From: a virus
Taxonomy: Duplodnaviria; Heunggongvirae; Uroviricota; Caudoviricetes
IMG/VR virus record: IMGVR_UViG_3300045988_025751
Location: 1-22,605 of that record
Length of the DNA: 22,605 bases
Strand: one strand, 5' to 3'
In this document: piece after piece, positions 3,001 through 9,000 of the stretch
Layout of the letters: each line of letters begins with the position of its first letter
How positions within the stretch are numbered: position 1 is the stretch's first letter
Made by a program: the position numbers

Positions 3001-6000
3001 CATCTTTCCAGAATCCGAACGATACATGGCTGTTTCCGTGGGTATCGAATGATGTCGTCTACGTCGCTGAGTATTACGAGGTAGAAGAGAAGAAGGAGAA
3101 AGTCTTCATCTACCGCGACCCGCTGACAGGTGAGCCGGTCAGCTATTTCCAGCAGGATATCAAAGACGTCATCGACGACCTGGCTAATCGTGGATTCATT
3201 AAGGTAGCAGAGCGTAAGGTCAAGCGTCGGCGTGTGTATAAGTCGATCATCACCTGCACGCAGATACTGAAAGACCGCGAGAAGATAGCTGGAGAGCATA
3301 TCCCAATCGTTCCAGTGTACGGCGAATGGTCATTCGCTGGTGACAAGGAGTGCTACGAAGGAGTGGTAAGGCTGACGAAAGACGGTCAACGCCTTCGTAA
3401 CATGATCATGTCATTCAACGCCGATATCGTTGCTCGTTCACCGAAGAAGAAACCGACCTTCTTCCCTGAGCAAATCGAAGGCTACGAATACATGTACGGA
3501 GGAAATGATGACTATCCGTACTATCTGCAGAACAAGACCGATGAAAACGGTAACGACCTGCCGATTGGTCCAATCTCCTACATGGAAAACCCTGAAGTGC
3601 CGCAAGCCAACGCTTACATGCTTGAGGCTGCCACCAACGCAGTGAAAGAGGTAGCTAGTCTTGGCGTGGATGCGCAGGCGGCAAATGGTCAGGTCGCTTT
3701 CGATACCGTCAATCAACTGAACATGCGGGCAGACCTTGAGACATACGTGTTTCAGGATAACCTGGCTACCGCAATGCGACGTGATGGCGAGATTTATGCC
3801 TCAATGGTCAACGATATTTATGACGTTCCTCGCCATGTAACGCTGACTCTTGAAGACGGAAGCGAGAAAGACGTTCAACTCTACGCGCAAGTTGTAGATT
3901 ACCAGTCCGGCAATGTGGTCACACTCAACGACATTCGCGGTCGCTATGAGTGCTATACAGACGTTGGACCATCCTTCCAGAGTATGAAGGAACAGAACCG
4001 CGCAGAGATTCAGGAGTTACTCACCAAGGTTCCACAAGGTACTCCAGAGTTCCAGATGCTGATGCTGCAATACTTCACGCTGCTTGACGGTAAAGGCGTC
4101 GAGATGATGCGAGAGTACGCGAACAAGCAACTGGTGATGATGGGGCTGAAGAAACCAGAAACACCTGAAGAGATGGAGATGGTACAGCAGGCTCAACAGC
4201 AGCCGCAGCAGCCATCAGCAGAGCAAATTCAGGCGCAGGGTATCCTTCTGCAAGGTCAGGCTGAATTGCTCAAGGCAGAGAACCAACAGGCGCAGATTCA
4301 GGTTGAAGCCGCCAAGGTTGAAGCCCAAAACCAACTCAACGCCGCGAAGATTGCGGAAATCTTCAACAATATGGACCTCGACAAGCAGGCAGAACTGCGT
4401 GAGTACCTCAAGCTCGTAGGTCAATTCCAGCAACAGCGCAGCAAAGATGCTCGTGCTAACGCTGAGCTGCTTCTTAAAGATGCAGACCAGACTCATTCAC
4501 AACGCATGGATTTCGCGAATCTTATGCGTCAAGTTCAAATCCCCTCCGGCGGAGTAGCCGAGACACCTCAATAAGAGAGAGTTAACCATGGACCAAACCA
4601 CCGACATTCAGGCTTCTGAAGAATTAACCATGCCCGGCAATCATGCAGCGGCATCTGCTGATGGCTTAGTTGTCGATAATGCCAACGACAACGCAGGTCA
4701 GGAAGAAGGCTTCGAGATTGTCCTGAAAGACGATGAGAAACCAAAACAAGACCCGGCAACTAATGCTGAATTTGCCCGTCGCCGCATCGAACGCAAACGC
4801 CAGCGTGAGCTTGAGCAGCAGATGGAAGCGGTTAAGCGTGGAGAGTTGCCGGAGCACCTGCGGGTGAACCCTGAGTTACCAAAACAACCAGACCCTAACG
4901 ATTATCTTTCCGAAGATGCACTGGCTAAGTACGACTATGACCAGAGCCGCGCACTGGCTGCCTTCCAGCAGGCAAACAGTGAATGGCAGATCAAGGCTAT
5001 GGACGCACGAAGCCAGGCTGTCGCCGAGCAGGGTCGCAAAACTCAGGAGTTCACCCAGCAATCAGCGCAATACGTCGAGGCAGCCCGTAAGCACTACGAC
5101 GCAGCGGAAAAGCTCAATATCCCTGACTATCAGGAGAAAGAGGATGCATTCATGCAACTGGTGCCGCCAGCAGTCGGTGCCGACATCATGCGCCTCTTCC
5201 CGGAGAAATCCGCTGCTCTCATGTATCACCTTGGTGCTAATCCTGAGAAAACACGCCAGTTGCTGGCGATGGACGGGCAATCCGCGTTGATTGAACTCAC
5301 TCGACTGTCAGAACGTTTAACTCTCAAGCCTCGAGCCAAACCTGTTTCAGAAGCCCCGCTACCTGATGAACCCATTCAGGGACACGCTGTTGCTGCAAAT
5401 ATCTCTGCGATTGAAAAGCAGATGGAGGCGGCAGCAAACAAAGGGGATGTAGAGACGTACCGCAAGCTCAAGGCGCAACTGAATAAAGGAATTCGATAAT
5501 TATTTCGATATCGTGATGTTGTTTTCCTCGTCAAACTTTCTGATTACTTCTTTCGCCTCTTCGAATGAAGAACATACTTTTTGCACTCTTGCATTAAGCA
5601 GTCGCTTATGCGCGATCCATCTTTTCCGCGTGTTGCAAAAGTAAACTCCAGATATTCCGCTGGAGTTATTTTTAGATAGTTTGATTCTATTCCTTTGGTT
5701 TGCTGATTTTTTCACAAGACGAAGATTTTCAATTCTGTTGTCGTGGCGAATCCCATTTATATGGTCAATTTCCATGCCTTCTGGAATATCTCCGTTAAAC
5801 ATTACCCATACGATGCGGTGTGCTAGCCACTTAATGCCGTTAATTCTTATGCGGATATATCCATTGCTTTCTAAAAGACCAGCAACTTTCCCAGCGTGTT
5901 TTGCATTCCAAACGTTGTGATAGTTGCGATTCTTTTTGTTGTTGAAAAATTCAGAGCTTCTGGCTTTCCAAACCAAAGAACCATCGCGGTATTCGAAGTA

Positions 6001-9000
6001 TTCATTCAGTTCCATGCTCATAACCCTAATGCGCTATATGTTGATATAACAATAGTATAGCACATAAAGAAAGTAAGGTATTCAATATATGACTCTCAAA
6101 GAAGGGCAGTTAGTTACTTACGCTATCGATGAAATCATCGAAACCGTCCAGAACCTGACGCCAATGGCGTCCAAAGTGACAAAATACACCCCTCCGGCAG
6201 AATCCATGCAGCGTTCAAGCAACACCGTGTGGATGCCTGTTGAGCAGGAAGCGCCAACTCAGACTGGCTGGGATTTAACTGGCAAAGCTACTGGGATTCT
6301 GGAACTCTCCGTGAAATGCAACATGGGTGATCCGGATAACGATTTCTTCGAGCTTCGTGCAGATGACCTGCGTGATGAGCGTTCTTACCGTCGCCGCATC
6401 CAGGCATCCGCCAAAAAACTGGCGAATAACATTGAGTCAGCAATTGCCAAACAGGCAACCGAAATGGGCTCACTTGTTGTTCACGATACCCGCGCAATTG
6501 GTCCATCTACTGGCCTGTCTGGCTGGGATTTTGTGTCTGATGCAGAGCGCCTGATGTTCTCCCGTGAGCTAAACCGCGATATGGGCATCAGTTACTTCCT
6601 GAACCCTGACGATTACCGCAAAGCAGGCCGCAACCTGGTAGATGGAGACATCTTTGGGCGCGTTCCTGAAGAAGCGTATCGCAACGGTACTATTCAGCGT
6701 CAGATTGCTGGCTTTGATGAAATTCTTCGCTCACCGAAACTTCCGGCAGTTACCAAGTCAACCGCTACTGGTGTAACTGTTTCTGGTGAGCAGAAGTTTA
6801 AGCCGCAGGCATACACCCTTGATACCGATGGTAACAAAGAGAACGTCGACAACCGTGTTGCAACGGTGACCGTATCCTCCACCACCGGATTTAAGCGCGG
6901 CGACAAAATCAGTTTCACTGGTGTGAAATTCCTGTCTCAGATGGCGAAGAACGTGCTGACTGATGATGCGACTTTCTCAATCACCCGTGTGATCGATGGT
7001 ACTCACATCGAAATCACGCCGAAGCCGATTGCACTGGATGACGCGTCACTGACAAAAGAAGAGAAGGCTTACGCTAACGTAAACACCTCTCTTGCTGATA
7101 CCACTCCGGTAAACGTTCTGAACGTGGCAACAACCACCGCTAACGTGTTCTGGGCTGATGACTCAATCCGTCTGCTGTCTCAGCCGATCCCGGTAACCCA
7201 TGAACTGTTTGCTGGTATGAAAACGTCTTCCTTCAGCATTCCTGGTATTGGTGTTAACGGCATCTTCGCAACGCAGGGTGATATCAATACTCTGTCTGGT
7301 AAGTGCCGTATTGCTGTGTGGTATTCAGCATGTGCTGTACGACCAGAGGCAATTGGTGTTGGTCTGCCTAACCAGACCGCGTGATAACCAGAGGGAGCTT
7401 CGGCTCCCTTTTCTATTGGAGATACCAATGAGCGTAATGATTTTTCAGGCTGGCGGAGATACCAAAATCTGGGGACGCAAGCTGAAAACGAAAACCGTTG
7501 ATCCTGATGATGTAGCTGTGCACTTAGCAAATGGCTGGTATAAGCACCCTGACGATGTTCCTGATGATCCTCTTGTTGGTGATCAAATTGGGAGTGTTGG
7601 CGGAGGTGAAACTTCCCCAGTTGATATGGGCGAAGTGTCCGACGGTTATCACACTTTTAACGAGCTTTACGCTCACCGAGTGCGACTCTTCTCATCGCTG
7701 ATGCATGCTTACGCTGAGCTTTCGTGGTGGTCTCGCAAACACAGTGACGGTGAAGAGTGGGATGGCTGGATCATTGCTGGTATCACCACTCCAGAAGGCG
7801 AAATCACTTATCACCTACCTGTTGAAGAAATCGAGTTCCTTCCTGAAGGTACTGAGCTTGAGTTCGGGAAAGAGTGGGATGGTCATGAAGCAAATGATGT
7901 TCTTGGACGACTCCTGAGTTTGCGTCCGGCTATTGCAGAGCCGGAGTCAGAGCCAGAAGAAAAACAGCGTAAAAAGCCTGGTCGAAAACCTAAGGCGGCA
8001 GCAGATGAACCTGACAACGAAGGGTGATTTAGTTCTTGCGGCATTACGTAAGCTCGGTGTGGCATCAAATGCCACGTTAACCGATGTCGAACCGCAGTCT
8101 ATGGAAGACGGCGTCAACGACCTTGAAATGATGATGGCTGAATGGCTTGGCGGTGATGTGTCACCTGGTATCAACGTTGGCTACATTTTCGCTGATGCAG
8201 ATGTCGCTCCAGATCCGGGCGATGAGCACGGTTTATCAAATAACGCTATCAATGCTGTCATTTTCAACCTTGCCTGCCGCATTGCACCGGATTATGCGCT
8301 GGAAGCGCCTGCAAAACTTATAACCACTGCCAGATACGGGAAAGAGCGACTCGTCAAACTGTCTGCAATGGACAGAGCAAAAGCCGCTAAATGTAAGTCC
8401 GGTTATCCAAACCGTATGCCTGTTGGTAGCGGTAACCAGTTGGCGAAGTGGAACGGTTGGAATTACTTCCACCGAAAGGAACCTTGCGATAACGGGAGCG
8501 AATAATGCCGATTCAGCAACTTCCGCTCATGAAAGGTGTCGGCAAAGACTTCCGAAATGCCGACTATATCGACTATCTACCAGTGAATATGTTGGCTACA
8601 CCCAAAGAAATCCTTAACAGCAGCGGATATCTTCGCTCATTCCCGGGCATTGCCAAACGTTCTGATGTGAACGGTATATCTCGAGGCGTCGAGTACAACA
8701 TGGCGCAGAGTGCTGTTTATCGCGTGTGTGGCGGCAAGCTCTACAAAGGCGAAAGCGAAGTCGGTGACGTCGCCGGAAGTGGTCGTGTATCAATGGCGCA
8801 TGGTCGGACATCACAGGCGGTAGGCGTTAACGGGAAACTGGTCGAGTATCGTTATGATGGCACGGTTAAAACCGTCTCAAACTGGCCTACAGACAGCGGA
8901 TTCACTCAGTATGAGTTAGGTTCTGTTCGTGACATTACGCGCTTACGTGGGCGTTATGCGTGGTCAAAAGACGGCTCTGATTCATGGTTTATCACTGACC

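Follow-up and report, generated by a model that had tools for sequence, protein, structure and literature searches.

A probable homing endonuclease cassette at the scaffold/coat junction of P22-like phages

The DNA analyzed here, IMG/VR virus record IMGVR_UViG_3300045988_025751 (Caudoviricetes; positions 1 to 22,605, all 22,605 nt of which we refer to as the window), holds the late half of the genome of a P22-like (Lederbergvirus-type) E. coli phage according to open reading frame (ORF) calls and Pfam matches. Between the genes for its scaffolding protein (scaffold) and its major capsid protein (coat), a gene encoding an HNH-AP2 type endonuclease is inserted in antisense orientation. Together with an AT-rich spacer and the first 13 codons of coat it forms a cassette (5500-6127), which is probably a free-standing homing endonuclease element that has the start of the coat gene as its target. 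Close relatives are polymorphic for presence of the gene, with exact boundaries; the recoded coat start is fully linked to it; the endonuclease is under purifying selection; diversity is lower within the cassette than in its flanks; and the same site is occupied in five diverged lineages.

The scaffold stop codon (TAA, 5497-5499) directly abuts the endonuclease stop codon (TTA on the plus strand, 5500-5502) with no spacer at all, whereas 67 nt (6022-6088) separate the first ATG of the endonuclease (6021) from the coat ATG (6089). The insert between scaffold and coat (5500-6088; 589 bp) has 37.9% GC, compared with 53% in scaffold and 50.6% in coat, and only 0.5% of all 589-nt segments across the 22.6 kb have a GC content as low. 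The other lowest-GC stretches of the window are located at ~17790-18380 (start of the tailspike gene) and at 21970-22600 (beyond the integrase gene), with GC fractions of 0.375-0.40 per 589-nt segment. An Rfam scan of 5300-6300 returned no match at E ≤ 1, group I introns included, hence there is no intron or other known RNA in this region; the endonuclease ORF is an independent gene between the scaffold stop and the coat start, outside any intron or intein. An earlier reading, made from the sequence alone, had described a 173-aa antisense ORF, flush with the scaffold stop and 67 nt away from coat, in an AT-rich insert of ~590 bp, and all of these coordinates and numbers were correct.

Presence and absence of the gene among close relatives

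Phages Louie and Dewey carry the insert at 99.5-99.8% identity. In HZ41, APC_JM3.2, CurroJimenez (Bas106), and IME10, the flanks are 97.7-98.3% identical to the window, minus exactly 590 bases. Among 5426 complete E. coli genomes, we found 217 with this junction type: 20 contained the insert (at least 98.8% identity), 189 the empty allele, and eight a hybrid allele that is described below. IMG/VR contributed 11 further carriers and ~100 empty junctions.

Empty genomes have overlapping scaffold stop and coat start codons (TAATG), an arrangement that phage L and P22-type junctions share along with the sequence GAAGGTCAA; the empty junction of the IME10/CurroJimenez type contains GATAATGGCATTAAATGAAGGTCAACTGGTC. 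On its left side, the cassette begins exactly after the scaffold TAA, up to which sequences with and without it are the same. A P22-type junction with the empty allele was also present at ~1465277 of NZ_CP026085.1, a record named E. coli DH5alpha; this is unexpected for a K-12 derivative, and the strain may have been lysogenized or mislabeled.

The GTDB representative genomes contained no close relative (best match, 41% identity). Outside the P22-like phages, the nearest sequence relatives of the endonuclease are HNH genes of enterobacterial siphophages (Escherichia, Klebsiella, Salmonella, Pantoea), with 40-49% identity.

A recoded coat start is linked to the gene

Coat codons 1-13 read ATGACTCTCAAAGAAGGGCAGTTAGTTACTTACGCTATC in carriers and ATGGCATTAAATGAAGGTCAACTGGTCACGTATGCTCTG in empty genomes. 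The two versions differ by 14 substitutions, all within coat nt 4-39; seven codons were changed synonymously only, and the amino acid replacements are A2T, N4K, and L13I. Against the background divergence of 1.1-2.6% in the surrounding 2.7 kb, 14 differences within 39 nt correspond to a Poisson P between 6e-12 and 7e-17. We compared allele frequencies between 16 distinct carrier and 71 distinct empty haplotypes over ±900 nt, using a difference of at least 0.3 as the threshold for association. The only sites associated with the gene within 900 nt on either side were these 14 coat positions. The linked tract implies that the unit that moves is 5500-6127 and not 5500-6088. The sequence-only reading had thus placed the left edge of the insertion exactly, but its right edge was too short, as it had missed the recoded 5′ end of coat.

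Two codons within the tract stand out. Codons 6-7 read GGG CAG in 24 of 24 carrier loci belonging to four lineages (introduced below), and Asn4 occurred in none of these loci; a fifth carrier lineage has GGA CAG. As the counterpart, we compared 126 empty loci (25 distinct sequences), including P22-type junctions and empty relatives of the carrier lineage whose endonuclease is 74% identical to that of the window. Asn4 together with GGT CAA was found in 121 of them, GGT CAG in two, GGC CAA in another two, and GGG CAG in a single one, which is the hybrid allele. Elsewhere in the tract, synonymous sites drifted apart between carrier lineages, whereas the wobble positions of codons 6-7 did not, and for this reason we place the core of the target there. 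We propose that the recognition or cleavage core may include the sequence AAT/C-GAA-GGT-CAA of the empty allele (~6098-6109 in the window), which reads AAA GAA GGG CAG in the carrier.

The hybrid allele lacks the endonuclease gene, and its coat start is of the empty type at nt 1-9 but of the carrier type at nt 10-39; its identity to the carrier tract extends over nt 10-56, on a coat gene that is otherwise 2.9% diverged. The eight complete E. coli genomes that contain it came from humans, pigs, and water; ECONIH6 (L010, NZ_CP026199.1, positions 3600-3640) is an example. Most likely, this allele derives from a carrier or arose by partial conversion. It is a candidate for a cleavage-resistant allele, or for an outcome of gene loss or partial conversion. 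If the target model is true, this allele would resist cleavage.

The recoded tract encodes the N-arm of the coat protein just before residues D14, E15, and E18, which bind R293 and K296 of the scaffolding protein in P22 (PMC9965877). Residue 4, altered by N4K, hydrogen-bonds S285 of the scaffolding protein in P22 (PMC9965877).

Age and spread of the cassette

Flank haplotypes were not grouped by carrier state. Of 1500 nt in the left flank, only 5 distinguish the carrier Dewey from the empty CurroJimenez, but 15-21 distinguish it from other carriers; of 1255 nt in the right flank, 14 distinguish the window from the empty HZ41, but 20-27 distinguish it from other carriers. Linkage of the gene to flanking polymorphisms is gone at the nearest common ones, at distances of 57-123 nt on the right side and ~70 nt on the left, while the recoded tract was separated from the gene in none of the 24 carrier loci.

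Nucleotide diversity (pi) among 17 carriers was 0.45% in the cassette vs 1.05% and 1.98% in the flanks, i.e., 2-4 times less; at third codon positions, pi was 0.96% vs 2.6% and 5.5%. No 628-nt segment of the flanks was as uniform as the cassette. This low diversity points to a common ancestor younger than that of the surrounding DNA, and the cassette looks as if it had spread recently into pre-existing lineages of this phage group.

Diverged lineages at the same site

Protein searches identified relatives of the endonuclease at about 82, 73-74, and 59-61% identity, here called the 82, 74, and 59% lineages. In all three, the gene lies antisense between P22-type scaffold and coat genes, within inserts of 575-588 bp and 40-44% GC. 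Their coat proteins are 89, 72, and 69% identical to that of the window, respectively, and the divergence of the endonuclease roughly tracks that of coat; synonymous sites of the endonuclease genes are saturated between the window and the 74 and 59% lineages. With the window, the 82% relative (L012) has ATGACTCT and most of the recoded tract in common. We considered it as a direct donor and rejected this possibility, because the synonymous divergence between the two endonuclease genes (~1.9) is too high.

A further locus, L304 (IMGVR_UViG_3300038809_000005, 10577-11212), contains a 178-aa HNH-AP2 gene that is 43-44% identical and lies antisense at the same site. Over the last 400 nt, its scaffold gene is ~97% identical to that of the 74% lineage; the scaffold stop is followed by a 27-nt spacer with a small hairpin, and among isolated phages the best match of the L304 endonuclease is the Louie/Dewey gene. 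This suggests that one endonuclease gene was replaced by another at the same site. The occurrence of such diverged genes at one junction points to a long-used landing site for this endonuclease clade that was re-occupied or swapped at least once. Judged from these comparisons, the association with the scaffold/coat site is old and includes at least five diverged P22-like lineages, the window's among them. The view of the sequence-only reading that a free-standing homing endonuclease had invaded this operon is supported by the polymorphism and the deviant GC content, but not as a one-off event.

The same occupation of five lineages, and the fact that endonuclease divergence roughly tracks that of coat, would also be expected if the endonuclease were an old resident gene and the empty relatives were deletion derivatives. 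We consider this highly improbable. The empty allele has TAATG and GAAGGTCAA in common with phage L and P22-type junctions, which makes it the widespread ancestral layout, and deletion would additionally need the reversion of 14 substitutions; moreover, the GC content is foreign and the cassette is younger than its flanks. Nor do all close relatives carry the gene at ordinary GC content: they are polymorphic, with base-exact boundaries, and the insert deviates in GC.

Features of the endonuclease protein

The endonuclease ORF encodes 173 aa from the ATG at 6021 or 171 aa from a second ATG at 6015. The second ATG is more likely the true start, since a putative Shine-Dalgarno sequence, TAGGGT, lies 8 nt upstream of it (2 nt upstream of the first ATG) and since the NCBI annotation pipeline PGAP starts the gene there in three E. 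coli genomes. The annotated gene of Louie is 6 nt longer because the single-nucleotide polymorphism (SNP) 6026 C>A introduces an additional ATG upstream.

The HNH assignment is certain. HNH_3 (PF13392) matched residues 66-110 with E=3.9e-22 and 78 bits (cut-off 24.8), covering positions 2-46 of the 46 in the profile, and PHROG 99 ("HNH endonuclease") matched with E=1.3e-50. Residues H68, D86, H87, D94, N95, R96, N99, L100, and N108 were invariant across 70 aligned homologs. A profile of this 70-homolog family matched the solved structure of I-HmuI (1u3e) with E=1e-7, and BLASTP aligned the endonuclease with I-HmuI at 28% identity over 85 aa. Both alignments pair D86-H87 with the DH dipeptide of I-HmuI and N99 and N108 with the asparagines of its NLR and IN motifs. 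The I-HmuI residues aligned with H87, N99, and N108 are its catalytic residues His75, Asn87, and Asn96. In the AlphaFold model (predicted local distance difference test score 89.5), strands 83-87 and 100-104 followed by helix 105-112 form a beta-beta-alpha metal finger. I-HmuI was also the top Foldseek match in the PDB (probability 1.0, E=3.3e-3), with a template modeling score of only 0.37 because the C-terminal domains differ.

For the C-terminal part, a strict single-sequence test for AP2 failed (see below), and the assignment draws on the family and on the predicted fold. AP2 matched at E<1e-3 in 30 of the 70 homologs, the best with 1.4e-11, and the family profile, at positions ~89-153, matched the solved plant AP2 proteins WRI1 (7wq5, E=1.1e-5) and TEM1 (7et4, E=1.5e-3). 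The AlphaFold model predicts strands 126-129, 134-140, and 145-150 and a helix 153-166, elements that fit the AP2 fold of a three-stranded antiparallel sheet against a single helix; the AP2 structures 3igm, 6sy0, and 7wq5 were among the Foldseek matches, at probabilities of 0.5-0.8 and E>0.1 only. Taken as family-level homology plus predicted fold, an AP2-like domain appears well supported.

NCBIfam gave no match for the protein. PADLOC matched it with generic "HEase" HNH models only; these matches are confined to the generic HNH core and give no assignment to a specific defense system.

The ORF was intact in all 17 near-identical copies, each with an insert of 589 bp, and their polymorphic sites comprised six synonymous and three non-synonymous ones. 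Compared with the 82%-identical relative, the ratio of non-synonymous to synonymous substitution rates (dN/dS) was 0.055, which indicates that the endonuclease genes are kept functional by purifying selection. The NCBI protein P0005, encoded on an E. coli chromosome of 4.70 Mb, is 102 aa long and matches a portion of the endonuclease, 56% of its length, at 100% identity; thus, at least one prophage copy appears to be truncated.

Predicted expression and possible effects on the late operon

On the minus strand of the spacer, an extended -10 candidate, TGCTATACT, is located ~33-39 nt before the endonuclease start codons. A TATAAT-like hexamer recurs at the corresponding position of four lineages; it is preceded by TG in the 82 and 74% lineages and reads TATAAT in the 59% lineage. 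As a consensus-level match within DNA of 28% GC, TGCTATACT is only a candidate for the endonuclease promoter.

On the plus strand, the 82, 74, and 59% carrier lineages all retain the coat ribosome binding site (AAGGTAAGG/TAAGGT). The empty allele has its coat ribosome binding site, AAGGA, within the 3′ end of scaffold, and its TAATG overlap constitutes translational coupling. By its sequence, the cassette swaps this scaffold-coat coupling for a separate, predicted ribosome binding site. The consensus scan detected no plus-strand promoter-like site in the insert.

P22 has a single late operon. From the gene order, the lack of a plus-strand promoter match, and the fact that Louie and Dewey are plaque-forming phages, we infer that the late transcript would cross the antisense endonuclease gene to reach coat. 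The lost translational coupling and a convergent gene within the late transcript could affect the scaffold-to-coat ratio, which is important for P22 assembly.

A hairpin at 5644-5667, inside the endonuclease ORF, has an 8-bp inverted repeat and a T-rich run and is terminator-like on both strands. Its role as an attenuator of the late transcript was rejected: the sequence encodes the conserved NSSGISGV, stability drops from -13.4 to ~-5 kcal/mol in the 74 and 59% lineages, and there are no compensatory changes. The hairpin is probably a by-product of the coding sequence. For the endonuclease transcript, no terminator was found at the flush junction, and a hairpin at 5268->5254 within scaffold was discarded as a candidate because it is at chance level. 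Immediately past the endonuclease stop, the 59% lineage has a GC-rich hairpin with a trailing T-run (3344-3362 of L018) that overlaps the scaffold stop. This hairpin is a plausible terminator for the antisense transcript, and the window has no equivalent of it.

Proposed homing cycle and alternative explanations

In the course of events that we propose, the endonuclease would be transcribed, probably from its own promoter in the 67-nt spacer, and so be made while the late operon is silent. A carrier and an empty genome would meet in one cell by co-infection or by superinfection of a lysogen. The enzyme would then nick or cut the empty allele at or near coat codons 1-13, with the proposed core as its target, and repair from the carrier genome would copy in the gene, the spacer with the coat ribosome binding site, and the 39-nt recoded coat start. 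The recoded start would, in turn, make a carrier genome resistant to the enzyme that it encodes. In this scheme, we infer from the comparisons above that the enzyme cleaves DNA, where its target lies, which promoter drives the gene, and when it is expressed.

Several points weigh against homing at this site. The case for nicking or cutting and for biased inheritance is built on sequence comparison, and in phages as mosaic as these a 600-bp insert could also spread or be lost through ordinary homologous recombination, with no nuclease involved. Being situated within 40 nt of the insert, the linked tract could have come along from the donor lineage as a passenger and not as an immunity determinant, and the GGG-CAG of four lineages could be inherited from one ancestral cassette and not selected. 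No co-converted tract was found on the scaffold side, over the last 900 nt before the insert. The minus-strand promoter that the sequence-only reading expected in the coat leader has a counterpart in the extended -10 candidate, but the consensus scan called no canonical sigma-70 promoter on either strand of the spacer and did not flag TGCTATACT; SNP 6062 A>G, found in 2 of 17 copies, removes the T of its TG (the SNPs at 6026 and 6062 concern loci L001, L008, and L028). Of the two domains named in the same reading, HNH is confirmed, but AP2 (PF00847) stayed below its cut-off of 33.3 on the protein itself, with 15.7 bits for the whole protein and 18.1 bits for a C-terminal fragment and a match to profile positions 1-19 only; it was found at the level of the homologs.

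On another reading, the element is inactive or nearly so, a remnant shuffled by homologous recombination with the 39-nt tract as donor DNA not yet separated from it. The heavy recombination of P22-like phages, visible in the scrambled flank haplotypes and in a mosaic block just after coat, fits such a history, as do the closeness of the tract to the insert and the truncated 102-aa copy. We regard it as very unlikely, since all 17 copies are intact with their catalytic residues present, synonymous sites outnumber non-synonymous ones by 6:3, and dN/dS is 0.055. Furthermore, a cassette less diverse than its flanks indicates recent spread, and the tract has stayed with the gene in 24 carrier loci despite the lost linkage to the flanks.

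The strength and long duration of purifying selection are in turn unexpected for a purely selfish element heading to decay, and could reflect a function in competition or defense, in which a nuclease made in the lysogen from its own promoter, with the late operon silent, attacks incoming empty P22-like phages at the coat start, to the benefit of the lysogen or of the resident phage, and homing is secondary. The antisense orientation, kept in five lineages along with a separate candidate promoter, the PADLOC "HEase" matches, and the hybrid empty allele, whose carrier-type tract in eight genomes is what a resistance allele would look like, all agree with this function. Nevertheless, it seems quite unlikely to us: continued homing cycles also explain the purifying selection, expression of the nuclease in lysogens is hypothetical, the PADLOC matches concern the generic HNH core, and only 20 of the 217 prophages of this type have the gene.

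A bolder version is also unlikely. It sees the junction as a long-standing battleground, where at least two deeply diverged HNH-AP2 nucleases, expressed antisense from prophages, would cut the coat N-arm DNA of rivals, the hybrid would be a selected resistance allele, and N4K would have hitch-hiked. If true, the nuclease would be an inter-phage weapon or exclusion system that reshapes capsid-assembly residues, and not a passive selfish gene.

Under the homing explanation, which we favor, the value of the cassette is practical, as it offers a clean, ready-made system for homing in a temperate model phage group. The carriers Louie and Dewey and the empty CurroJimenez (Bas106) come from the same laboratory, have ~98% identical flanks, and share the same E. 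coli K-12 host; the comparison narrows the expected target to ~12-40 bp at the coat start, and three natural alleles (empty, hybrid, and carrier) exist. For P22-capsid engineers and for prophage typing, it is of relevance that coat codons 1-13 exist in two forms that track the element.

Gene order and further features of the window

The features of the window are compiled in Table 1. Downstream of coat, head-completion and injection genes follow. The location of an HNH protein gene within the head-morphogenesis cluster recalls terminase-associated HNH packaging proteins such as HK97 gp74. A role of this kind is scarcely credible here, as portal and scaffold separate the endonuclease gene from the terminase genes, the protein has HNH_3 with an AP2 tail and is not of the short HNH type, and IME10, CurroJimenez, and APC_JM3.2 are viable without the gene. 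P22-type phages package by a headful (pac) mechanism, which also counts against it.

Table 1 Features of the scaffold/coat region and of the surrounding window
Feature	Position	Strand	Basis or remark
Small terminase	437-931		
Large terminase	909-2408		
Portal	2409-4574		Pfam P22 family
Scaffolding protein gene, P22 gp8 type	4588..5499	+	Pfam Phage-scaffold, E=4.9e-179; left flank
Endonuclease gene, free-standing HNH-AP2	5500..6021	-	ORF, HNH_3, PHROG 99
AP2-like C-terminal DNA-binding domain (predicted), residues ~121-166	5524..5661	-	Family-level homology
HNH_3 (His-Me finger) nuclease core, residues 66-110	5692..5826	-	Pfam, alignments, Foldseek
AT-rich spacer from the cassette, 67 nt	6022..6088		28% GC; absent from empty relatives
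Candidate extended -10 element TGCTATACT	6062->6054	-	Read from the sequence by eye
Shine-Dalgarno TAAGGT for coat, cassette-supplied	6074..6079	+	Sequence
Recoded coat codons 1-13	6089..6127	+	Inherited with the endonuclease gene
Major capsid (coat) gene, P22 gp5 type	6089..7384	+	Pfam P22_CoatProtein, E=3.6e-163; right flank
Antirepressor	16662-17630		
Tailspike	17731-19863		
Integrase	19923-21116		

No second HNH gene was detected in the window by tblastn. In the genomes of Louie (PQ850616.1) and Dewey (PQ850600.1), the endonuclease protein gave two tblastn places each, the second one outside the region that matches the window, so a second HNH_3-like gene is present elsewhere in both phages. 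Just past the coat stop, the window has an ORF (7248-8027) with a WDGH domain (PF25311, E=2.2e-39). It lies in a mosaic block, from ~7390 to 7590 and beyond, that the window has in common only with the prophages of E. coli C4 and AR_0118. The other close relatives, carriers and empty ones alike, have an unrelated segment after coat (24-31 mismatches per 50 nt), and this mosaic joint is unlinked to the endonuclease gene.

Comparison with known systems

The free-standing endonucleases SegF, SegG, and MobE of T-even phages, known from "intronless homing" and marker exclusion, lie between conserved genes and have their target in a neighboring gene; carriers are protected by polymorphisms, and flanking DNA is co-converted. 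The 39-nt linked tract fits this pattern of a target in the neighbor with co-conversion. The T-even enzymes are of the GIY-YIG or HNH-zinc-finger type, belong to lytic phages, and are usually co-oriented with their neighbors, whereas the cassette described here resides in temperate P22-like phages, lies antisense in the late operon, and its insertion breaks a translationally coupled gene pair.

With regard to the enzyme, I-HmuI of the Bacillus phage SPO1 is the best solved relative by profile, BLASTP, and fold, and has the same HNH_3-type core with an N-terminal sheet. I-HmuI nicks one strand. Its gene lies within a group I intron and its C-terminal domain is a helix-turn-helix, in contrast to the free-standing, intergenic gene with an AP2-like C terminus found here.

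The endonuclease belongs to the HNH-AP2 group, whose domain combination is recognized for homing endonucleases (Magnani et al. 2004, cited in PMC10448857). Free-standing phage genes of this type are enriched next to capsid and terminase genes and often sit where exchanged DNA begins or ends (PMC10448857; Barth, Dunham and Seed 2023). The endonuclease resembles the HNH-AP2 (IPA-HNH) class of the Vibrio phage ICP1 in being free-standing and in having an N-terminal HNH and a C-terminal AP2 domain. Unlike the IPA-HNH domains, which are reported to be too divergent for Pfam HNH_3 (PMC10448857), it matches HNH_3 strongly.

P22-like genomes are known to host HNH homing endonucleases, but at other sites: gene 31 of epsilon34 is an EaE-HNH fusion (PMC2629481), and SEN22 has a homing endonuclease insertion between terminase and portal (PMC5261728). 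Our literature searches found no description of an endonuclease site between scaffold and coat; the genome announcement of Louie and Dewey does not mention the gene, which GenBank annotates as "HNH endonuclease". The kind of element is well known and the finding is in itself unsurprising; it comes with a sharp prediction of a target and with natural strains that carry or lack the cassette.

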